Below, piece after piece: positions 24,577-35,721 of a DNA stretch of 64,000 bases; positions within the stretch are counted from its first letter, which is position 1; every line of letters begins with the position of its first letter. The position numbers and the translations under genes are program-made. Below the pieces are notes generated by a model that had not been told where the DNA came from, made no database searches, and worked only from the letters and a program-made list of their open reading frames with translations. The DNA lies in sequence record SRR20825006_1157. The stretch is one strand, 5' to 3'.

Positions 24577-26070
24577 ATGTCCGCCCGTATTATTCCGGTC
24601 GATCCTTTTGACTATGTGGTGTTTGGCGCCACTGGCGATCTTTCTCAGCGCAAGCTGATCCCTGCGCTTTATTACCGCTTTTATGACGGACAGTTCGACA
24701 CCAATTCGCGCATCATTGGTGTGTCGCGAACGGAGATGAGCGACGAAGAGTTTCAAAGATTCGCCCGCGATGCGGTGACCGAATTTGTCGATGCGGACCA
24801 TATCGAACCACAAATGCTGGATGATTTCATCGGTTGCTTCTCCTACATCGCCAACGATGTGACAGACCGTGAAGGCTGGGCCGAACTCAGCGATTCCTTG
24901 CGCAACGATCCTGAAGTGGTTCGCGCTTTCTATCTCGCCGTTGCCCCATTCCTGTTTGCACCCATTTGCGATTATCTGTCGAGCCAGAATTATTGGACAC
25001 CAGATGCCCGCGTGGTGCTGGAAAAACCATTGGGCCGCGATCTTCAGTCTTCCATCGAAATTAACGACACTGTGGCAGAAGTGTTCCGCGAAGATCAGGT
25101 TTACCGGATCGACCATTATTTGGGCAAAGAGACCGTGCAAAACCTATTGGCTTTGCGCTTTGCCAATGCCTTGTTTGAGCCAATTTGGAACTCAGCCCAT
25201 ATTGATCATATTCAAATCACCGCCGCAGAATCTGTGGGCGCGGGTGGTCGTTCCTATTATGAAAAGTCGGGTGCCTTGCGCGATATGGTGCAAAACCATT
25301 TGCTTCAGCTTTTGTGCTTGGTGGCCATGGAGCCGCCTGCCTCCGATGAAGCCAATGCGTTGCGCGACGAAAAACTGAAAGTTTTGCGCGCCCTAAAACG
25401 CATTGAGGGCGACGATGTGCACAAGAACACCGTGCGCGGCCAATATCGCGGCGTGAGCTCTGAAGACACAAAAGTGCCGGGCTATTTGGAAGAATTGGGC
25501 GAAGGCGCAACCTCCAACACAGAAACCTTTGTGGCCATCAAAGCAGAAGTGGAAAATTGGCGCTGGAATGGCGTGCCGTTCTATATGCGCACGGGCAAGC
25601 GCATGGCGCGCCGGGCATCAGAAATTGTCATCCAGTTCCGCGAAATTCCACACTCCATCTTTTCCCGCACCCAGGGTGCGCCAACGCCAAACCAGTTGGT
25701 GATCCGTTTGCAGCCTGATGAAGGCGTGAAGCTGTTCTTGATGATCAAGGATCCCGGCCCCGGTGGCATGCGTTTGCGCCAAGTGCCATTGAACCTTAGC
25801 TTTGCTGACACGTTTACCCAGCGGACCCCAGAAGCTTATGAGCGGTTGCTCATGGATGTGGTGCGCGGCAATCAAACTCTGTTTATGCGTCGTGATGAAT
25901 TGGAAGCCGCATGGGCTTGGATCGATCCGATCCGCGAAGCGTGGGACAATGATGCAACGCCTTTGCATGGCTACACCGCAGGCACTTGGGGGCCAACCAG
26001 CTCTGTTGCGCTGATCGAGCGCGATGGCCGCACATGGCATGAAGAGTTGGACGACCCAAAAGCATTATAG
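24577..26070 (+). CDS. zwf: Glucose-6-phosphate 1-dehydrogenase
   Basis: GATGDL, EKPLG, RIDHYLGKE, DMVQNH, RWNGVPFYMRTGKR. Confidence 0.97.
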   Translation: MSARIIPVDPFDYVVFGATGDLSQRKLIPALYYRFYDGQFDTNSRIIGVSRTEMSDEEFQRFARDAVTEFVDADHIEPQMLDDFIGCFSYIANDVTDREGWAELSDSLRNDPEVVRAFYLAVAPFLFAPICDYLSSQNYWTPDARVVLEKPLGRDLQSSIEINDTVAEVFREDQVYRIDHYLGKETVQNLLALRFANALFEPIWNSAHIDHIQITAAESVGAGGRSYYEKSGALRDMVQNHLLQLLCLVAMEPPASDEANALRDEKLKVLRALKRIEGDDVHKNTVRGQYRGVSSEDTKVPGYLEELGEGATSNTETFVAIKAEVENWRWNGVPFYMRTGKRMARRASEIVIQFREIPHSIFSRTQGAPTPNQLVIRLQPDEGVKLFLMIKDPGPGGMRLRQVPLNLSFADTFTQRTPEAYERLLMDVVRGNQTLFMRRDELEAAWAWIDPIREAWDNDATPLHGYTAGTWGPTSSVALIERDGRTWHEELDDPKAL

Positions 26071-26078
26071 GTGACAGA

Positions 26079-26780
26079 ATGGCAGATTTAATCGACCATA
26101 ATTTTGACAGCAAAGACCAACTGGCGCGCGCTTTGGCCTTTCGCGTGGCCACAGAGTTAAAGCGCGATATTGAAGCCAGCGGCAAAGCCAGCATGCTGGT
26201 TTCTGGCGGCTCAACGCCAAAAGCGTTTTTTGCTGCGTTGAGCGAAGAAGAATTGGATTGGACCCGGGTGACCATTTCTTTGGTCGATGAGCGCTGGGTG
26301 CCGCCAAGTTCTGATCGTTCAAACGCGAAACTGGTGGGCGAATATCTGCTGCAAAACAAAGCCAATGGCGCGGCCTTTATGCCGCTTTATGTGGATGGCC
26401 AATCTGCGCAAGAAGGCGCAAAATCTTTGGGTGAGCAGTTTGCTGCCATGCATAAGCCTTACACGGTTGTGATTTTGGGCATGGGCACAGATGGGCACAC
26501 AGCATCCTTCTTTCCAGAAGGTGACCAGCTGGCCGAAGCCATTGATTTGAAAAATCAAAACACATTCACGGCAATTGAAGCTCCCGGCGCAGGCGAGCCG
26601 CGCATCACCTTCACATTGCCGCAATTGTTGCAGTCTAGCTTTTTGGCACTGCATATTGAAGGCGATGAGAAACAGGACGTGTTGAAAACTGCGATGGGTG
26701 AGGGCGATGTCGCCGAAATGCCCATCCGCGCCGTACTGCGCCAAACATTGAAAGAACTGAACATCTTCTGGTGTCCCTAA
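26079..26780 (+). CDS. pgl: 6-phosphogluconolactonase
   Basis: SGGSTP, DERWVP, LGMGTDGHTASFFP, RITFT. Confidence 0.95.
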   Translation: MADLIDHNFDSKDQLARALAFRVATELKRDIEASGKASMLVSGGSTPKAFFAALSEEELDWTRVTISLVDERWVPPSSDRSNAKLVGEYLLQNKANGAAFMPLYVDGQSAQEGAKSLGEQFAAMHKPYTVVILGMGTDGHTASFFPEGDQLAEAIDLKNQNTFTAIEAPGAGEPRITFTLPQLLQSSFLALHIEGDEKQDVLKTAMGEGDVAEMPIRAVLRQTLKELNIFWCP

Positions 26781-26828
26781 TATCCTTTGCCCACAGGTCG
26801 CACGGATAAATCCAAAGGAGAAGAACCC

Positions 26829-28655
26829 ATGAGCGTCAATCAAACGATCCGCGAAGTTACTGAGCGTATCACCAAACGCAGCGAGAGAACCCGACGGATT
26901 TATCTGGACCGTATGGATGCGGCAGCTAAGCAAGGCGTGCACCGTACGGCCTTGTCTTGCGGTAACTTGGCGCATGGCTTTGCCGCTTGTGGTGTTGGCG
27001 ACAAAGCAAAGCTAAGCGATGATGTAACGCCCAATATCGGCATCATCACTGCCTATAACGACATGCTGTCCGCTCACGCACCGTATAAGGATTACCCCGA
27101 TCAGATCAAAGCAGCCGCAGAAGAAGCGGGCGCCGTGGCCCAAGTCGCCAGCGGCGTGCCTGCCATGTGTGACGGGGTGACCCAAGGCCAAGCCGGCATG
27201 GATTTGTCGCTGTTCTCGCGCGATGTAATTGCGCTGGCCGCAGGCGTTGGCCTCAGTCACAATATGTTTGATGCAGCCATGTTCTTGGGAATTTGCGACA
27301 AAATCGTCCCCGGCTTGGTGATCGCTGCGCTGACATTTGGGCATATTCCAGCGGTGTTTGTGCCAGCTGGCCCCATGCCGTCTGGCTTGCCAAATGACGA
27401 AAAAGCGCGCATCCGCCAACTCTATGCCGAAGGCAAGGTGGGGCGCGATGAGCTGCTGAAAGCTGAGAGCGAGAGTTATCACTCGCCGGGCACATGCACA
27501 TTCTATGGCACTGCAAACACCAACCAGATGTTGATGGAGATTATGGGGCTGCAATTGCCAGGTTCAAGCTTCGTCAATCCGGGCACACCAATGCGGGATG
27601 CGCTGACCAAGGAAGCGACCCGCCGTGCTTTGGCGATCACGGCGTTGGGCAATGAATTTACCCCTGCCAGCCGCGTGGTGGACGAAAAAGCCATCGTGAA
27701 TGGCATGATCGGCCTGCACGCCACAGGTGGCTCCACAAACCACACCATCCATTTGATCGCCATGGCGGCTGCCGCGGGCATTCAAATCACATGGCAAGAC
27801 ATGTCTGACCTGTCAGACGTGGTTCCATTGCTGACCCGCGTTTATCCAAATGGCATGGCTGATGTGAACCATTTCCACGCCGCAGGAGGCATGGGCTTTT
27901 TGATCGATCAGTTGCTGAACAGTGGTTTGGCCCATGATGATGTGAAAACAATTTGGGGCTCAGGTCTGCATGTTTATGCGCAAGAGCCAAAATTGATTGA
28001 CGACCGCATCAAAATGGAACCCGCCGCCAAAGAATCCGGCAATGAAAATGTGCTGACCCCATGCAACAAGCCTTTTGCCAAAAATGGTGGGTTGAAATTG
28101 CTCAAAGGCAATCTGGGACAGTCGGTGATCAAAATTTCAGCGGTGAAGCCGGAACATCGTGTGGTGGAAGCGCCAGCAAAAGTGTTCCACTCGCAAGATG
28201 AGTTGAACGATGCCTTTAAAGCGGGCGAGTTGAATGAAGATGTGATTGCCGTGGTACGGTTCTCAGGACCAAAAGCCATCGGCATGCCAGAGCTTCATAA
28301 GCTGACCCCACCATTGTCCGTGCTTCAAAATCGCGGCATCAAGGTTGCGTTGGTCACAGATGGCCGCATGTCAGGTGCTTCTGGCAAGGTGCCAGCTGCA
28401 ATTCATATGACCCCTGAGGCTGTGGATGGCGGGCCGATCGCCAAGATCAAAGATGGCGACGTGATCCGTCTTGACGCAGAAGCAGGCGTGTTGGAAATCT
28501 TGGTGGATCAAGATGAATTTGATGCCCGCCCCGTTGCAACACAAGATTTGAGTGCATCGCACCACGGCTTGGGCCGAGAACTTTTCGCAGGTATGCGGCA
28601 GCTTGTCGGTGCTGCCGATCAAGGCGCAAGCGCACTTGGCGAATTAATCAAATAA
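26829..28655 (+). CDS. edd: Phosphogluconate dehydratase
   Basis: [48 protein letters not shown] 26829 follows AAGGAG. Confidence 0.96.
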
Positions 28656-28681
28656 GACTTGAATTTTTTAAAATAAAAACT

Positions 28682-28716
28682 AAATACTCTCTCATTGAAA
28701 GATGAGAGGGTATTTT
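28682..28716 (+). terminator. Hairpin after edd (possible terminator) overlapping the next RBS
   Basis: AAATACTCTCTCAT-TGAAAG-ATGAGAGGGTATTT(T). Confidence 0.5.
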
Positions 28717-28717
28717 C

Positions 28718-29299
28718 ATGTTTAAATCTGCCCGGTTGGCGGTTTTGCTGTTGGCACCATTTGCGCTCAGCGCTTGTGTTTCGCTCAGCACCATTGGCAC
28801 CATTCAAACCATGTCGAAACTTGATGTGGTCAATGATCCTATTGAAGATATGGTGTTTGCGGTGGAAGCTGACAGCAGCCTGAAGCCGGTGACGGAAAAG
28901 ACATTTTTCGTGTTTTCACTAACGCCAGAAGGCGGCAAAACACAAAAAACATATGTGGGATTACGGAAAGCGGAAGCAGGAGAAATCCCCGGCGCAAACA
29001 TGAACGTGCCAGCGGAGCAAAACCTGCATGTATTTGTGTTCCCAGACGTGGAAAAATCAAAATTAAAAACCATTCAGGCCGAAGTGCGCAGGCTTAAATC
29101 TGAGAAAATTCAAGGCAGCTTAGCCATTGGTGTCGAACCAGAATTTTGCCGCACCACCCCGCAAATTGCGTCCAACTCAAAGTTCAGCATCTATGTCGCC
29201 CGCAACCAAACGGAAACATTGATGCCGCTACTCGCCGATATGAAGGTGAAGGAGCTGGAAGCAAAAGGTGGCCCAAACTTCTTGGCGCCGTGTAAATAG
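28718..29299 (+). CDS. Hypothetical lipoprotein
   Basis: Signal peptide with lipobox LSAC; no recognisable domain. Confidence 0.75.
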   Translation: MFKSARLAVLLLAPFALSACVSLSTIGTIQTMSKLDVVNDPIEDMVFAVEADSSLKPVTEKTFFVFSLTPEGGKTQKTYVGLRKAEAGEIPGANMNVPAEQNLHVFVFPDVEKSKLKTIQAEVRRLKSEKIQGSLAIGVEPEFCRTTPQIASNSKFSIYVARNQTETLMPLLADMKVKELEAKGGPNFLAPCK

Positions 29300-29300
29300 A

Positions 29301-30068
29301 CTAAAGCCGTGTCGCGCTGACCGCCTCGGTTACATAGGGGAAAGAGATTTGCTCTTTCCCTTTCAGTGCTTCATGTGTCGCCGCCAGTTCCCGCAGCTGT
29401 TCAGCGATCTCAGCTTGAACCTCTTCAGGCTGCGCTGCAATGAAGCTGACAGATAAGAAGCGATTAACGATCACTTCCTCGGCTGGGCCGTCATGGCTTT
29501 GCATAAAACTTTGCTTTTCCAGCGGTGAAAAGTGAGGCGAGGGGAGCGGCTTTTGCCAATCCCCTTTATAATAACGCGGCGCGTCCCCCTCATAGGGTGT
29601 GATCAGTTTGGTGATTGCCGCCACCCAATCTACATTTTCGTCGCGTACATTCCAAATCAAACCCAGTTTGCCGCCGGGGCGAAGCACGCGGGCCATTTCA
29701 TTCACCGCAAGATCACTGGCAAACCAGTGGAAGGATTGTGCGCAGATTAATGCATCGACACTTTGATCCGGCAAAGGAATGTCCAACGCGTTACCCTCAA
29801 GCGTTTCAACTTGCGGCAGGTTGGCCTGGAGCGTCTCGCGCATGGCGGCCACAGGCTCCACGGCGATCACATGGTCTGACACTTCGCAAATCCGTTTGGT
29901 GAACTTGCCTGTGCCCGCGCCCAAATCTACAACTTTGCTGTTTTTGCCCACAGCCAGTGTGTCTCGCATCCAATCCAAACTCGCCGCCGCATAATCTGGT
30001 CGCCCAGATTGATATTTATCGGCATTTTTCTGATAGCCGGTGCTGGCGCTTTGGTGGATGCTGGTCAT
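29301..30068 (-). CDS. Class I SAM-dependent methyltransferase
   Basis: YQSGRPDY, VDLGAGTGKFT, AVEP, AQSFHWF, RVLRPGG. Confidence 0.92.
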   Translation of the reverse strand: MTSIHQSASTGYQKNADKYQSGRPDYAAASLDWMRDTLAVGKNSKVVDLGAGTGKFTKRICEVSDHVIAVEPVAAMRETLQANLPQVETLEGNALDIPLPDQSVDALICAQSFHWFASDLAVNEMARVLRPGGKLGLIWNVRDENVDWVAAITKLITPYEGDAPRYYKGDWQKPLPSPHFSPLEKQSFMQSHDGPAEEVIVNRFLSVSFIAAQPEEVQAEIAEQLRELAATHEALKGKEQISFPYVTEAVSATRL

Positions 30069-30071
30069 AAA

Positions 30072-31547
30072 CTAGAACTTGCCACCTGTTTTAAAGCCGC
30101 CGTGATCGCGCTTGCCTTTTGAGCCGCGCGGCGTGCTGCGTGGGCGGGAAAACTCGGATGAGCTAGACCCGAACGTGCCGTAATCTTTCGATTTACGGCG
30201 TTTCTTTGAGCTATAGGATTTGCTGCCCCATGGATTACTATATTGATCCTTGGAGCGGCTGCGTTTTGGACCGCGATATTTTTGTGCCTTTTGCCATTGG
30301 CCCCAATAATTGGAAGCGCTGATGGCACCCTTCAAAAACTCGCCCAAAAGGTCTTCCACCAGATCATCATCAAAATCAAATGATGGGCGGTCATAGCGCT
30401 TTTGTTTGAATTCCCATTCAATATCTTCCAGCTCGCGCCGCCGAACTGCAAGTGTTTTCAGTCGATCTTTGCTGGCATTGATCTCGGTTTCCAACGCAAC
30501 GATTTCGGTGCGCACCGCATCGATCTTGCGCACAATCTGATCATCTTCGCGGGTGGAGGTTTGCCGGGCAGCCGCATAAAGATCTTCCAACCCTTCGCGC
30601 TGCAGGCCAGAGGCAAGCAAATCTACAGCTTCACGATAGGCTGGATTTTTGCCTTCAGAGAATTTCCGCTGCCGATGCACCAACTCGTCCCGTTGGTCCT
30701 CAAGCTCAACCAGCCGCGCATCAATAGCAGCAATAATCTCTTCTGAACGATCTGCGGTTTCGCGGGCCGCTTTGCCGCCATGGGCATCAAACGCTGCATC
30801 CTCAAGCGCATCCAGCTTTTGCCGCTCCGCATCAATTTCATCTTGCAGATGATCAGCGTGTTCGCGCAAGCGCATGGGAATTTCGTTCAGAATAACAAAA
30901 TTAGGCTTGGCATCGTGATAGCGCACCATGCGCGCCACCCAACCATCCAACATGCGGGTGATGTTGCTCGCTTTATAGGCATTGGTGTTATAGCCACGCT
31001 CAAAAAGATACATAAACAGCGGATCGTTGCGATAAGGCGCGCCTTTTTCTTCGCGATCCTTTTCCGCAACGCCTGCTTTTTCGTCGGCGTGGTTAAAGGT
31101 GGCCACCGCATCATCAACTGCTTGTTTCTGCGCTTGATATTTGGCGTCCTTATCAAGGTCGGCAAAAACTTCAGCGCTCAATTGGTCTAGCTTTTTCTGC
31201 GCGGCCTCATAATCGGCCATGGCCGCATCGCGCTTGTCGCGTGTGGCTTCAATGTCTTTATCCACATCCGCCAAAAGCCCAGAAAGCTCGTCCAGCTTGC
31301 TGGCATGGCGCTGCAATATCTCATTGGCTTCTTTTTCCGCGCGCGAAATATAGTCGGTGACTTCTGTGCGCTTTTGCGGGTCAAGCCGCACCTTCGCAAG
31401 CGCGGAAAATTGTTCGCTTTCCACTTCGCGCAGCCGCGCAATCTTGGCCGATGCATCGGCGGAAGATCGGGTAAGCGAACGCTCTTCATCGCGAATGTCG
31501 CGCATTGAGCGATCGAGCCGACGCAGTGCTTCTGGACCTGATACCAT
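30072..31547 (-). CDS. Uncharacterised long coiled-coil protein with basic low-complexity tail
   Basis: 491 aa, charged and helical; central YRNDPLFMYLFERGY segment; ends GGFKTGGKF. Confidence 0.85.
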   Translation of the reverse strand: MVSGPEALRRLDRSMRDIRDEERSLTRSSADASAKIARLREVESEQFSALAKVRLDPQKRTEVTDYISRAEKEANEILQRHASKLDELSGLLADVDKDIEATRDKRDAAMADYEAAQKKLDQLSAEVFADLDKDAKYQAQKQAVDDAVATFNHADEKAGVAEKDREEKGAPYRNDPLFMYLFERGYNTNAYKASNITRMLDGWVARMVRYHDAKPNFVILNEIPMRLREHADHLQDEIDAERQKLDALEDAAFDAHGGKAARETADRSEEIIAAIDARLVELEDQRDELVHRQRKFSEGKNPAYREAVDLLASGLQREGLEDLYAAARQTSTREDDQIVRKIDAVRTEIVALETEINASKDRLKTLAVRRRELEDIEWEFKQKRYDRPSFDFDDDLVEDLLGEFLKGAISASNYWGQWQKAQKYRGPKRSRSKDQYSNPWGSKSYSSKKRRKSKDYGTFGSSSSEFSRPRSTPRGSKGKRDHGGFKTGGKF

Positions 31548-31556
31548 GCTAATGCC

Positions 31557-32486
31557 CTACCACTTTGTTATCGCGCCGCCCAAAACTGGCTGCGTGTAAT
31601 CCACATTGAGATAGCCAAATTCTTTCAGGCCCATAATGTTGTTTTGAATGATTCCATCATCCAGCTTGTCGTCGCGAATGGCTTCAAACTGCACTTCGCT
31701 CACGCGCACCCCCCATTGCTCAACCGTTTCAGCAAGGCCAGATTCTTCGTTGGTGATGCTCTGGGGTAAAATATTGCCGTCAGGCCCAATGGCCTCAACA
31801 ATGATGTAATAATTGCGCGCGTCTTGGTTCACGTCTGGATAAGTCCAAACGCCAGTGTCTGCGCCTTCGCGGTTCACCACTTGCACGCGATATTCGCTTT
31901 GCAATGTGGAAAGCAATCCGTTGAGGTCGCTAAGAAACTTCTCTGCCGCAACTTGATCGCCAGCGCTTGCGGCCAACTTGCCGCGGTCGGCCAGCTCTGC
32001 CGCTTGCGTGTTCGCTGCGTCAACCTTTGCGGTCGCTTCAATCTGCGTCACAAGTTGATCAAACTGGGCAGGCAATTCGGTGCTCAAATAGGTTTGAGTT
32101 GCTGCCACTTGCCCTGCTTGCATGGGCTGATAAACCAGAAAATAGCCTGAAAGGCCAATACCAAGCGCCAGGCCGATGCCAAGCACCCATTTGCCCCAGC
32201 GCCCGCGTGACACATAGGCACGCGCAAGCATATATCCAAACCCGCCCGTGGGCGGGTTGTAAGTGAAACGAGATTCTTTGAGTGCGTTCACGCCCTCTTG
32301 CAAAATGTGATCGGGCACATCAATGCCCTGCTGGTGATAGATTTCGCGCAAGCGATCCACCAATGTGGAGGCCCGGTTCTCTTCATTCAGTTCCCGCGCC
32401 ACCAGATCATTGCGATGGCGCAGTGTGTCCACCACGTCCATCGCCATCATCACATCGTCAAGCGGTAAAGACTTGTCTTTGTTCAA
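31557..32486 (-). CDS. Single-pass membrane protein, DUF6384-like
   Basis: LDDVMMAMDVVDTLRH N-domain, TM segment WVLGIGLALGIGLSGYFLVY, beta-rich C-domain ending GGAITKW. TTG start after GGGA. Confidence 0.8.
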   Translation of the reverse strand: MNKDKSLPLDDVMMAMDVVDTLRHRNDLVARELNEENRASTLVDRLREIYHQQGIDVPDHILQEGVNALKESRFTYNPPTGGFGYMLARAYVSRGRWGKWVLGIGLALGIGLSGYFLVYQPMQAGQVAATQTYLSTELPAQFDQLVTQIEATAKVDAANTQAAELADRGKLAASAGDQVAAEKFLSDLNGLLSTLQSEYRVQVVNREGADTGVWTYPDVNQDARNYYIIVEAIGPDGNILPQSITNEESGLAETVEQWGVRVSEVQFEAIRDDKLDDGIIQNNIMGLKEFGYLNVDYTQPVLGGAITKW

Positions 32487-32520
32487 AACGCTTATCCCGT
32501 TTCGTCTCTATGCCGTTTGC

Positions 32521-33708
32521 TTAGCTTTGCTTTTGTTCAACCAAAAGCGTGTTGCCTTCGGCAGCCAACTTCGCCAAACGTTGCTTGCCATCTTCAACAG
32601 CATCGCGGATTTCGGCTGAGTTTTTGGTGGATTGCTCACGCATCTCATTGATGATTGTGCGAGACTTCTCTTGGAAGTTCACAACACTATCCACCAGCTT
32701 TTTCACTGCATCAGCGCGAATGGTTGGGCCATAACCAGCTTTAAGTGCTTCTTCTTGCACGCTGTCGCCAATCTCCGCCAATGTTTCAAGGCTTTTAGAC
32801 ATGCCTTCCTTCATCGCGTTCAAGGTTTCAGTGCTTTCATGCAAGCCAAACAGGCCGGTGAAAGACGCGCTCAATGCGGTCAACACAGTCTCGTTGGTTG
32901 AGAAGAAGGAGATGGATTGCTGATAAACCCGCTCTTTGGCGTTGGTGGTTTGCATCAAGCGCGCCATGATCACTTCTGACGTGTTGTAAGAAATCGTCAA
33001 ATTGTCAGAAAGGTCTTTCGCAATCTGATAGCGACGCTCTTCTTGCTGCATTTCGCGCAACCGTTCGTCGCGTGCCATTTCCAACCGAGCACGGTCAGCC
33101 GGCGTGCCATCAGCAAAGTTTTCCAACTCTTTTGTGGCATTGCTCAAATGCTCTTTGCGCTCATTCAGTTTGGCTTCGGCTTTTTCAAGCACTTCAAGCG
33201 CCATCACTTCAGATTGCTTCAGCGCACCGCGGAAATCGCGATAGGCTTCCAAAATTGTATGTTCGCGATCAACTTGATCTTTCGTGTCTTTGGTCACTTC
33301 AAGATAAGTGGTGCGGATTTTGTCGAAGCGGGTTGGAATGTCGCCGCGTGTCACTTTCATCCAAACGTTGGATGCACGCTCCAGCAGGTCCAACTTGCCA
33401 TCTTCAAGCTGGTCCACCATGCCTTTGGCGTCGTCGCGGATGCTATCAAAGCCATTGGTGATGTCTTCATAGCGCTGGCCAATATTCATGGCCGCAATTT
33501 GTTCGCGCACAACTTCGTTGAAAATACTCGCTTGGTTCAACGTCCGGCCAATCAAAATGACGCGGGTTTCGTCCAAATCGGTGATTTCTTGCAGAAGTCC
33601 GGTAATCGGCGCCTCTTCAACAGTTTCTGGCCAAAGGCCCATTTCGCGGATCGCGCCCACTGCCTTGTCTAGATATTGCAATGGTTTTTCAGCGAGTTCA
33701 TTAGCCAT
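32521..33708 (-). CDS. All-helical protein with distant TelA (toxic anion resistance)-like pattern
   Basis: 395 aa from ATG 33708 (after GGGGAA). No signal peptide or clear TM; long amphipathic helices. Confidence 0.75.
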   Translation of the reverse strand: MANELAEKPLQYLDKAVGAIREMGLWPETVEEAPITGLLQEITDLDETRVILIGRTLNQASIFNEVVREQIAAMNIGQRYEDITNGFDSIRDDAKGMVDQLEDGKLDLLERASNVWMKVTRGDIPTRFDKIRTTYLEVTKDTKDQVDREHTILEAYRDFRGALKQSEVMALEVLEKAEAKLNERKEHLSNATKELENFADGTPADRARLEMARDERLREMQQEERRYQIAKDLSDNLTISYNTSEVIMARLMQTTNAKERVYQQSISFFSTNETVLTALSASFTGLFGLHESTETLNAMKEGMSKSLETLAEIGDSVQEEALKAGYGPTIRADAVKKLVDSVVNFQEKSRTIINEMREQSTKNSAEIRDAVEDGKQRLAKLAAEGNTLLVEQKQS

Positions 33709-33840
33709 AATTGTTTCCCCATTCAGCCTTGGAACCAAAAGTGTTAGATAATTCTTTTATCTTCATCAATTGACACAGTGCAAGCATGTTACCATGTGTT
33801 GAAGATATTGGAATTGTTTCGCTTGAGGTAAAGGCCTTTT

Positions 33841-34335
33841 ATGAAATTTGTTGGACATTACCGCATCACAGCCCCAAGATTGTCGGTCTGGGAAGCGCTA
33901 AATGATACAGACGTGCTCAAGGCCTGCATCCCCGGTTGCGACCGGATTGAGTGGGTGGATAGCGAAAATCTGGAAGCCTCAATCACCGTAAATTTGGGCC
34001 TGATGAAACCGACATTTGTGGGTGATCTTAGTCTGTCGAATGTGGAGCCTGCTCGGGCTTACACGCTTTCAGGCGGCGGTCGTGGCGGGCTTTTGGGCCT
34101 TGCGCGCGGCGCGGCAGATATTGAATTGCAAGATTGGGGTTTGGCCAACGAGGCCTGCATTTTAAAGTTTGAAGCCCATGGTGAAGTTTCCGGTTCTATC
34201 GAAAAACTCGGCTCAAAAATCGTAGGTAAAAGTGCCCAAGGGGTGATTGATCGGTTCTTCAGCCGCTTCGCTGCGCAAATTGACGCAGAAGCCATCCCGG
34301 TGGAAACGGAAGAGCCCGCCGCATCGGATCAATAA
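33841..34335 (+). CDS. CoxG-like SRPBCC-fold protein
   Basis: VWEALND.DVLKACIPGC, F.G...LS, KLGSKIV...A....DRFF. No cox genes nearby. Confidence 0.85.
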   Translation: MKFVGHYRITAPRLSVWEALNDTDVLKACIPGCDRIEWVDSENLEASITVNLGLMKPTFVGDLSLSNVEPARAYTLSGGGRGGLLGLARGAADIELQDWGLANEACILKFEAHGEVSGSIEKLGSKIVGKSAQGVIDRFFSRFAAQIDAEAIPVETEEPAASDQ

Positions 34336-34467
34336 AAAGATCAAGAATATTCTCACACTTATGTGAGCAAGAGTTGTTGCCCTAAGGGGCTGTACTTCTC
34401 GCGCCAATCGCGTATCAAATATCTGCAATTGTTCGATCAATAAGCACTCACGTGCGAAGGATATTTT

Positions 34468-35721
34468 ATGCGTAAAAATCGGTTTTTCCGTTCCCCCGCC
34501 GCAAAGCAATTGGCCCTTGCATCAATTATTGCCTTGGGTGCGCCTGCCCACGCTTTGGCGCAGGATCAAGCGCCAGACCCCGCAAATTGGGAAAGCGTTT
34601 TGGAGCAGGCGCAGGGCCAAACCGTTTATTTTAACGCGTGGGGCGGCGCGCCAAATATCAATAATTATATTGCTTGGGTGGGCGACAAGTTGAAAGCCGA
34701 ATATGGCGTCACCCTCGAACATGTAAAACTTGAAGACACTGCAACCGCGGTCAGCCGTGTGATCACGGAAAAAGCTGCGGGCCGCAATTCTGGCGGTTCG
34801 GTCGATCTTATTTGGATCAATGGCGAAAACTTCGCCGCCATGAAAGAACAAGGTCTGCTGATTGATGACAATTGGGCTGAACAACTACCCAATTATCAAT
34901 ATGCCGACATTGAGGGTAAGCCGACCCTAACCTACGATTTTACCGTGCCAGTTGAAGGGCAAGAAAGCCCATGGGGCATGGCGCAATTGACCTTCTATTA
35001 TGACAGCGAGATTTTGCCGGAGCCGCCAACCTCACTTGAAGGCCTTGCAGCCTGGGCCGAAGAAAATCCCGGGCGCTTTACTTATGCTGCCCCACCAAAC
35101 TTTATCGGTACAACATTCTTGAAACAGGTGTTGTATGGTGTGGTAGATGACCCGTCCATCCTGCGCGAGCCAGCCACCAAAGAAGTGTTTGACGAGGCAA
35201 CAGCGCCGCTTTGGACCTATCTGGAAGAGATCAAGCCACATCTTTGGCGCGATGGCGCAATTTACGCCAAGGACACAACCCAGTTGAAAAATCTGCTGGC
35301 TGATGGCGAAATCGATATCGCGATGACCTTTAATCCCGGCGAAGCATCATCCGCCATCAATGCTGGTGAATTGCCGCCAAGCGTGCGGTCCTTCGTTATG
35401 GACTATGGCTCAATGGGCAACTCTCATTTCGTGACCATTCCTTACAATGCCAACGCAAAAGCAGGGGCAATGGTAGTAGCAAACTTCCTGCTCTCCGCTG
35501 AAGCACAGGCACGCAAGGCTGACGAAAATGTGTGGGGCGACCCATCTGTTCTGGCCATCAATGCCTTGCCTGCGGAACAAAAAGCCTATTTTGACGCATT
35601 AGAGCTGGGCGCGGCCACTTTGCAAGGCGAAGAGTTTGGCAAAACCTTGCTCGAGCCTCATGCAAGCTGGGCGACCATGCTTGAGGAAGAATGGTCAAAA
35701 CGCTTCATGCGCGATATGTAA
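34468..35721 (+). CDS. ABC transporter substrate-binding protein, YnjB-like
   Basis: GQTVYFNAWGG, GSVDLIWINGENF, ESPWGMAQ, GRFTY, WGDP; signal peptide. Confidence 0.88.
   Translation: MRKNRFFRSPAAKQLALASIIALGAPAHALAQDQAPDPANWESVLEQAQGQTVYFNAWGGAPNINNYIAWVGDKLKAEYGVTLEHVKLEDTATAVSRVITEKAAGRNSGGSVDLIWINGENFAAMKEQGLLIDDNWAEQLPNYQYADIEGKPTLTYDFTVPVEGQESPWGMAQLTFYYDSEILPEPPTSLEGLAAWAEENPGRFTYAAPPNFIGTTFLKQVLYGVVDDPSILREPATKEVFDEATAPLWTYLEEIKPHLWRDGAIYAKDTTQLKNLLADGEIDIAMTFNPGEASSAINAGELPPSVRSFVMDYGSMGNSHFVTIPYNANAKAGAMVVANFLLSAEAQARKADENVWGDPSVLAINALPAEQKAYFDALELGAATLQGEEFGKTLLEPHASWATMLEEEWSKRFMRDM

Follow-up and report, generated by a model that had tools for sequence, protein, structure and literature searches.

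In a 64,000-nucleotide (nt) stretch of DNA from sequence record SRR20825006_1157 (hereafter, the window, meaning the whole stretch), three adjacent minus-strand genes, here called genes 1, 2 and 3, form a real, self-contained cassette that recurs with the same order and strand on bacterial chromosomes, on megaplasmids and, at least for genes 1 and 2, in a jumbo phage. Gene 1 encodes an elongated all-helical protein, gene 2 a single-pass membrane protein that is a full-length member of DUF6384 (PF19911), and gene 3 a long helical protein of coiled-coil type. As stated in an initial annotation of the window, the three products lack enzyme motifs; no enzyme family could be identified for them in Pfam, NCBIfam or PADLOC. 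DUF6384 is a family without assigned function, and no paper naming it or dealing with the trio was found in the literature searched. On the basis of the results described below, we tentatively regard the products of genes 1-3 as a membrane-anchored scaffold that faces the cytoplasm and may coat, stabilize or remodel the inner membrane of the cell producing it, a reading to which we give somewhat less than an even chance.

The distribution of the three genes was examined in 121 genomes drawn evenly from the same order as the window. The same 39 genomes had the trio side by side on a single contig and strand, ordered 1-2-3. Single counts were almost the same (40 for gene 1, 40 for gene 3 and 40 for DUF6384, 39 of the last over the cut-off), and gene 3 always adjoined genes 1 and 2 where contigs allowed. 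The overlap was broken by one assembly of 560 contigs, in which genes 1 and 3 appeared as fragments at the ends of contigs, and by a single DUF6384 match below threshold. Most of the copies in this sample were chromosomal. By tblastn, the trio was also identified in all 30 loci fetched from other genera, one of which is truncated by the end of its contig. Of the Devosiaceae loci having enough downstream DNA, 64 of 64 contained it as well. The gap between genes 2 and 3 had a median of 5 nt and was 15 nt or less in 25 of the 30 loci, and clustering of the flanking open reading frames (ORFs) of these 30 loci revealed no further common gene, the next-largest cluster comprising 5 loci. A search seeded with a distant orthologue of gene 1 returned at least 584 relatives, and those 60-65% identical to this orthologue included records labelled Chromatiaceae, Thiotrichaceae, Sedimenticolaceae, Pseudomonadales, Rhodospirillales and others (including Gammaproteobacteria-labelled ones); some of these labels belong to metagenome bins and may be wrong. 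In 60 loci of at least 8 kb from the distant relatives, carrying several class labels, ORF clustering recovered gene 1 in every locus, gene 2 in 57 and gene 3 in 53. Where a gene was missed, an antisense frame had probably been picked in the GC-rich DNA, and no cluster besides the trio occurred in more than 5 loci. Because the same order and strand recur in 39 of the 121 genomes and in 30 of 30 loci, the arrangement is far beyond chance. The initial annotation had treated the first three genes as one unit, to be given up if they were not co-conserved; since the trio is co-conserved across genomes, that view stands.

Several individual genomes showed irregularities. One genome (G300) contained two complete copies of the trio, on contigs C2 and C27. 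Gene 1 of genome G214 had an in-frame TGA and was split into two matches, and gene 3 of genome G243 had an in-frame TAG; these stop codons may represent pseudogenes or assembly errors. A 1064-amino acid (aa) frame at locus L175, which looked like a gene 1 fusion, had a 678-aa extension that matched no family and was therefore treated as an open frame in GC-rich DNA.

The coordinates of the genes and of the features discussed below are shown in Table 1. The list of ORFs agrees with the four minus-strand genes and the spacings of 34, 9 and 3 nt originally described. An alternative TTG start at 33738 would give gene 1 a frame of 32521-33738 (405 aa); the ATG was favored because it fits the aligned N-termini of 29 orthologues.

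Table 1. Genes and features of the locus in the window
Feature	Position	Strand	Description and basis
Gene 1	32521..33708	-	395 aa from ATG at 33708; ORF list
Gene 2	31557..32486	-	309 aa; ORF list
Gene 3	30072..31547	-	491 aa; ORF list
Gene 4	29301..30068	-	Class I SAM-dependent methyltransferase, 255 aa; ORF list and Methyltransf_11
Gene 1, residues 268-330	32719..32907	-	Candidate lipid- or partner-binding 'head'; conservation, hydropathy and poor model
Gene 2, residues 97-119	32130..32198	-	Transmembrane helix; sole segment with 19-residue Kyte-Doolittle mean >1.0 (maximum 1.89)
Gene 3, residues 168-235	30843..31046	-	'Tip' domain; conservation peak
Gene 3, residues 431-491	30075..30257	-	Disordered tail; predicted local distance difference test (pLDDT) <50 for 433-491
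Element upstream of gene 1	33767..33833	-	Promoter-like: CTTTAC, 17 nt, CAATAT, then CAATTG about 35 nt on; conservation

Gene 4 is not part of the conserved module. It had been annotated as an S-adenosylmethionine (SAM) methyltransferase that might be a passenger, and both points were borne out. Its sequence matched Methyltransf_11 (E 1.9e-19) and Methyltransf_25 (E 1.7e-17) over the Pfam cut-offs and reached no NCBIfam equivalog cut-off; in PADLOC, the methyltransferase domain matched the model mad2 (2.9e-20). A methyltransferase stood beside the module in none of the 30 loci of other genera and in 7 of the 64 Devosiaceae loci, all 7 of which were from Maritalea. On the far side of gene 4, a 193-aa ORF on the plus strand (28718-29299) had a lipoprotein-like N-terminus, that is, a hydrophobic stretch followed by Cys, and no Pfam family. 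The zwf-pgl-edd cluster (plus strand, 24577-28655), which adjoins the module on the opposite strand, encodes glucose-6-phosphate dehydrogenase, 6-phosphogluconolactonase and 6-phosphogluconate dehydratase of ordinary Entner-Doudoroff metabolism.

Copies of the module are also carried by mobile elements. Relatives of gene 1 were identified on 11 plasmids, including seven Pseudomonas megaplasmids and the megaplasmid of Methylorubrum extorquens AM1, and in Yersinia jumbo phage phiR1-37; the plasmids range from 323 kb to 1.39 Mb, and the phage genome is 262 kb. The megaplasmid and phage copies of DUF6384 also scored over the family cut-off. The conjugative plasmid of P. aeruginosa PA83, whose replicon is typed as IncP in its record, contains the trio: a gene 1 relative (377 aa, 45% identity) named 'merozoite surface protein 3b' has as neighbors a 'DUF6384 family protein' of 476 aa and a hypothetical protein of 447 aa that is 22% identical to gene 3. 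In phiR1-37, g190 shares 39% identity with gene 1 across 95% of its length, g191 is a DUF6384 protein (E 4.7e-26), and g192 (417 aa) is the third gene by position. Because hhalign gave a probability of just 15% (E 0.0017) between gene 3 and g192, the latter was considered only a positional equivalent. A viral fold search with gene 3 placed G4KKD1 third (E 1.4e-4), a viral protein that shares the length of g192 (417 aa) and may be the same protein. The phage came from a search of phage records, and a scan of viral contigs with gene 1 patterns, which were narrow, gave 32 pattern matches and no confirmed relative.

The phage copy is transcribed. Table S2 of Leskinen et al. (2016; PMC4848604) reports transcription of g190-g192 at every stage and assigns them no temporal class. 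The mean early, middle and late values listed there are 32,683, 39,000 and 41,993 for g190, 13,922, 14,582 and 16,006 for g191, and 16,261, 20,881 and 24,416 for g192, well above most of the rows compared, which lie between tens and low thousands. The phiR1-37 record bears no structural-protein flag on any of the three genes.

Gene 2 provides the only transmembrane helix of the module. It matched the DUF6384 profile with 434.3 bits (E 3e-130; cut-off, 25 bits), residues 4-309 aligning with profile positions 3-308 of 308. In a 29-sequence alignment, a conserved N-terminal domain of 95 residues with the motif L-D-x-x-M-x-A-M-D-V-V-D-T-L-R-H preceded the single transmembrane helix, which was followed by a variable helical stretch and by a C-terminal domain, again conserved, that ends in G-G-A-I-T-x-W. 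The finding of one hydrophobic segment agrees with the single-pass character initially assigned to the protein. Judged from its sequence, an N-in/C-out topology is likely, because there is no signal peptide and a modest positive-inside bias could be observed: the 15 residues before the helix contained on average 3.2 Lys and Arg versus 2.2 in the 15 residues after it, with more before the helix in 22 of the 29 sequences.

Gene 1 had more than 8000 homologues, the best 120 of which were 82-100% identical, and the closest named record, from Maritalea mobilis CGMCC 1.7002, was 100% identical. Twenty-nine orthologues from other genera were 60-85% identical to the window protein, with a mean column identity of 72%, and the family comprised 701 clusters at 50% identity (E <= 0.001). 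Automatic database names for the family were 'cell surface protein' and 'merozoite surface protein 3b'; a cluster look-up for ten distant representatives returned no names. No Pfam family was over threshold for the window protein or for 30 orthologues. Searches of Pfam, NCBIfam and PADLOC with genes 1 and 3 yielded nothing beyond coiled-coil noise (SMC-type in NCBIfam), and comparison of genes 1-3 with the sequences of solved structures, using single proteins as well as profiles, yielded nothing meaningful; the best row was a helical HP0242 chimera (E 3.2e-4) covering 69 residues of gene 3.

The AlphaFold2 model of gene 1 (pLDDT 75; predicted template modeling score, 0.66) consists entirely of helices, including two of 73 and 103 residues, arranged as an elongated bundle. 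This model and a hydropathy peak of 0.87 (19-residue Kyte-Doolittle mean, residues 274-292) support the original description of the protein as all-helical and soluble. The segment 268-330 is both the most conserved and the most hydrophobic stretch of gene 1, and it is poorly placed by the model, with a pLDDT below 50 for residues 283-329. Across residues 221-340, the mean identity of orthologues to the window protein in 20-residue blocks was 0.79-0.93. A sub-threshold match to the apolipophorin-III family ApoLp-III (PF07464) was located at residues 276-324 (20.8 bits versus a cut-off of 36.3 bits) and recurred in 22 of 30 orthologues. Inspected by eye, neither gene 1 nor gene 3 has an N-terminus resembling a signal peptide, and hhalign did not detect the two genes as paralogues (probability 1%).

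Gene 3 had no Pfam family match. Its AlphaFold2 model (pLDDT 85.7; predicted template modeling score, 0.73) is formed by long antiparallel helices nearly throughout to residue 430 (4-54, 57-131, 135-173, 210-255, 258-297 and 333-382), in keeping with the helical, coiled-coil character first proposed for it. Conservation peaks in a tip domain with the motif P-Y-x-x-D-P-L-F-M-Y-L-W ... N-Y-x-x-L-x-E-I-P-x-R-L-x-E-H, and 13 of the 21 invariant columns of the protein lie within residues 168-227. In one genus (loci L121 and L131, from genomes G268 and G210), gene 3 is a protein of 133 aa that contains the tip alone, and the accompanying DUF6384 protein scores much lower (E about 2e-65), which represents a natural minimal variant of the module. 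The disordered tail is basic and Ser-rich in the window protein, which ends in F-K-T-G-G-K-F, and Gly-rich in relatives. Of 27 full-length orthologues, 26 end in [FW]-x-T-x-x-x-F, as does the window protein, and all 27 have the terminal F. With its flexible linker between the folded body and a conserved end peptide, gene 3 is reminiscent of tethering hubs such as SSB and FtsZ.

Upstream of gene 1, an alignment of 59 Devosiaceae upstream regions with differing flanking genes revealed an element whose columns were at least 70% conserved (Table 1). This conservation suggests that CTTTAC-N17-CAATAT may act as a housekeeping-type promoter. A strict sigma-70 scan of 28600-34500 gave no sites, and a scan for terminator-like structures gave 10 sites versus 9.0 expected. 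In most Devosia loci (L038-L102, alignment columns 165-262), a perfect inverted repeat, GTGCG-7 nt-CGCAC, lies between the -35-like and -10-like hexamers; Maritalea does not have it, and it may be a genus-specific operator. A divergently transcribed gene of the CoxG/SRPBCC family (plus strand, 33841-34335; E 4.9e-24) starts 8 nt from the -35-like hexamer.

Contigs from RNA libraries of two runs spanned the whole locus at about 96% identity, and contigs of 1.1 and 1.5 kb from run X2 bridged both gene junctions. Some contigs were 11-13 kb long with genes on both strands, and they may represent DNA carry-over for this reason. In two RNA-library runs, contigs broke at 32412-32467, the codons of the invariant gene 2 sequence M-D-V-V-D-T-L-R, where loose ends connect to other sequence. 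These words are probably shared by related organisms in the RNA samples.

Taken as a scaffold of the inner membrane, the three proteins would make up a self-contained, non-enzymatic assembly on the cytoplasmic side of the inner membrane in the producing cell. The anchor would be gene 2, with its N-terminal domain in the cytoplasm, its helix through the membrane and its C-terminal domain in the periplasm. Gene 1 would be an elongated bundle of amphipathic helices whose shape resembles that of ClyA/XaxA-type proteins and of apolipoproteins; lipid or a partner would bind to its segment 268-330, which is extremely conserved and of uncertain conformation. Gene 3 would form a long antiparallel stalk, whose tip and flexible tail with the F-x-T-x-x-x-F peptide could tether the parts together. 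Such an assembly might be made constitutively from the putative housekeeping-type promoter, and it would coat, stabilize or remodel the membrane.

Several observations weigh against this scaffold. First, the module is rare: DUF6384 was present in 2 of 201 class genomes and 6 of 401 phylum genomes sampled, and the module was missing from the genomes searched in several large families of the order (among them f215, 0 of 15, and f2, 0 of 13); it is therefore dispensable for most bacteria. Second, the positive-inside bias of gene 2 is modest, and gene 1 contains no segment hydrophobic enough to span a bilayer at its 19-residue maximum. Third, a Foldseek search of the gene 1 model against the PDB gave no row at E <= 0.001, and the scores obtained are within the range that the tool reports for unrelated helical bundles. 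Fourth, carriage by megaplasmids and a jumbo phage would fit a role in competition or exclusion too. Finally, the RNA-library contigs over the locus cannot show a transcript.

A bolder version of the scaffold, which we consider rather doubtful, is that the module is a new, horizontally mobile membrane machine. Gene 1, with its ClyA- or apolipoprotein-like shape, would be brought to the inner membrane by gene 2 as a dedicated single-pass receptor and by gene 3 as a stalk and tether. It would switch between soluble and lipid-bound states, patching, coating or reshaping the membrane from within, and would serve chromosomes, megaplasmids and a jumbo phage alike in keeping the host envelope working. 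If true, a fold that secreted pore-forming toxins employ in attack would here have a protective use inside the cell. Exchangeable apolipoproteins (apolipophorin-III, PF07464) and perilipin-type lipid-surface binders differ from the module in that they act alone, without an anchor or a stalk partner.

The main rival is that the trio constitutes an alpha-helical pore-forming system of the ClyA type, in which gene 1, and perhaps genes 2 and 3 with it, would insert into a membrane. It would be directed either at another cell as a released toxin or at the producer's own membrane in controlled lysis, abortive infection or the exclusion of rival elements. The nearest solved natural shapes to the gene 1 model are ClyA-type proteins: XaxA, AhlB and SmhB were the high-probability Foldseek rows, with a probability of 0.98 (E 0.026-0.045) for XaxA and AhlB. 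ClyA-type toxins are encoded by two or three adjacent genes, which resembles the arrangement found here. The conserved and poorly modeled middle segment of gene 1 lies where the toxins have their membrane-inserting head, and carriage on a megaplasmid and in a phage would also suit a toxin. However, the fold scores are within helical-bundle noise, and gene 1 had no sequence similarity at E <= 10 to any solved chain of the ClyA superfamily (ClyA, XaxAB/YaxAB/PaxAB, AhlABC/SmhABC, Hbl/Nhe, MakABE and Cry6Aa). Genes 1 and 3 are not detectable paralogues, and the hydrophobic maximum of gene 1 is far below transmembrane grade (0.87, against 1.89 for the helix of gene 2), with no transmembrane-grade head apparent. 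The trio also differs from this superfamily in that one component, gene 2, is a genuine single-pass membrane protein that carries an additional C-terminal domain. Toxins are usually far less conserved than gene 1, whose identity of 60-85% across the families of an order is unusual for them. The named holders of the module are mostly free-living marine, soil and methylotrophic bacteria. In PADLOC-DB 2.0.0 (2023), genes 1-3 matched no defense model and gave only coiled-coil noise at E >= 0.00095. The strong transcription of the phage copy from the early stage, as tabulated for phiR1-37, also counts against a lethal pore. On balance, a ClyA-type pore appears unlikely.

It was also considered whether gene 1 is a very divergent TelA/KlaB, the cassette then being a counterpart of kilA-telA-telB (klaABC), or of TelA with a membrane partner, for tolerance to tellurite-like anions or envelope-active compounds. 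The initial annotation had called gene 1 TelA-like, a label that no sequence test supported. PF05816 gave no row against gene 1 at E <= 10 (Pfam cut-off, 30 bits), was not among the 25 most-matched Pfam families of 30 gene 1 orthologues (E <= 10) and matched none of 21 distant representatives (E <= 0.01). The search recovered true TelA in 10 of 121 class genomes (9 over 30 bits) and in 4 control genomes; the nearest genome examined, which carries the module, gave no PF05816 match. Searching in the other direction, the gene 1 profile found nothing at E <= 10 in five TelA-bearing genomes, and a hidden Markov model of TelA gave noise on 155 representatives of the gene 1 family (best E 0.013, 7.7 bits). 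The TelA profile had no match among solved structures at E <= 1 apart from two chance rows. Two weak colinear matches were obtained with hhalign, one between the gene 1 alignment and a true-TelA alignment (residues 30-100 versus TelA 93-159; probability 0.35%, E 0.17) and one between a 121-sequence gene 1 alignment and TelA (C-terminal 107 columns; probability 1.2%, E 0.043); these comparisons used shallow alignments (effective sequence number, Neff, 1.9-4.0) and had limited power. In the ESM Atlas, one neighbor set made up 25 of 30 feature hits, an example cluster (312 members, score 0.97) having PF05816 on 52% of its members, which we treat as a lead only.

The TelA/kla operon and the trio are alike in encoding helical, non-enzymatic proteins of about 360-400 aa (gene 1, 395 aa; TelA, 359-399 aa) in a three-gene, plasmid-borne cassette that includes a membrane protein. 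For the kla operon we used the IncP-1-type plasmid pMNCG080, which was found by a TelA query. Its KlaA (L228:1620-2405) matched PF05816 over the cut-off (E 5.1e-10), as did KlaB, and klaA and telA/klaB are thus paralogues. The tip of gene 3 aligned weakly with KlaA (E 0.0059, probability 6%), and the hhalign probability between gene 1 and KlaB was 0.33%. Gene 2 as a relative of KlaC was rejected (probability 0.2%). The kla operon contains two TelA paralogues among its three proteins, whereas genes 1 and 3 are not detectably related to each other, and the gene order and composition of the trio differ from those of klaABC. On balance, we find a very divergent TelA-type tolerance module improbable.

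The initial annotation had also likened the coiled-coil protein to PspA, which was not supported: no sequence match was found, and the fold matches were those of a generic helical hairpin. None of genes 1-3 matched the PspA_IM30 or Snf7 families, the Shrub and Snf7 fold matches covered only 82-102 residues of the 491-residue gene 3, and no PspA, Vipp1 or ESCRT-III chain was among the gene 1 fold matches listed. Thus, the likeness to PspA/Vipp1/ESCRT-III is limited to the generic hairpin of gene 3.

Less probable still is a cytoskeleton-like or tethering device for large DNA or cell poles, in which gene 3 would be a stalk resembling the arms of SMC or Rad50, its basic tail would bind nucleic acid and gene 2 would provide the hold on the membrane. 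The fold matches of gene 3 are indeed mostly arms of SMC, Rad50 and MukB, chemoreceptor shafts and dynein stalks, the tail is strongly basic in the window protein, and the mobile copies reside on very large replicons. However, these are generic matches to long coiled coils with template modeling scores (TM-scores) of 0.11-0.28, no ATPase head, hinge or DNA-binding family was found in Pfam or NCBIfam, the tail of most orthologues is rich in Gly and not basic, and most copies of the module are chromosomal. That genes 1-3 are neighbors without a joint function is hardly credible, as all loci examined, from different orders and classes and from the megaplasmid and the phage, preserve their order and strand despite differing flanks, and as genes 2 and 3 lie so close together.

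Our results thus describe three proteins without a studied relative, one of which, gene 1, is about as conserved as housekeeping proteins, and whose genes move jointly among chromosomes, conjugative megaplasmids of Pseudomonas and a jumbo phage of Yersinia. Selection this strong on proteins that lack any enzyme motif points to a role in structure or in handling membranes that has so far not been described in bacteria. Being small, self-contained and present in culturable non-pathogens (Devosia, Maritalea and the megaplasmid of Methylorubrum extorquens AM1), the module is directly testable. If gene 1 is an intracellular shape-relative of the ClyA-type toxins, the module would also bear on the origin of that toxin fold.

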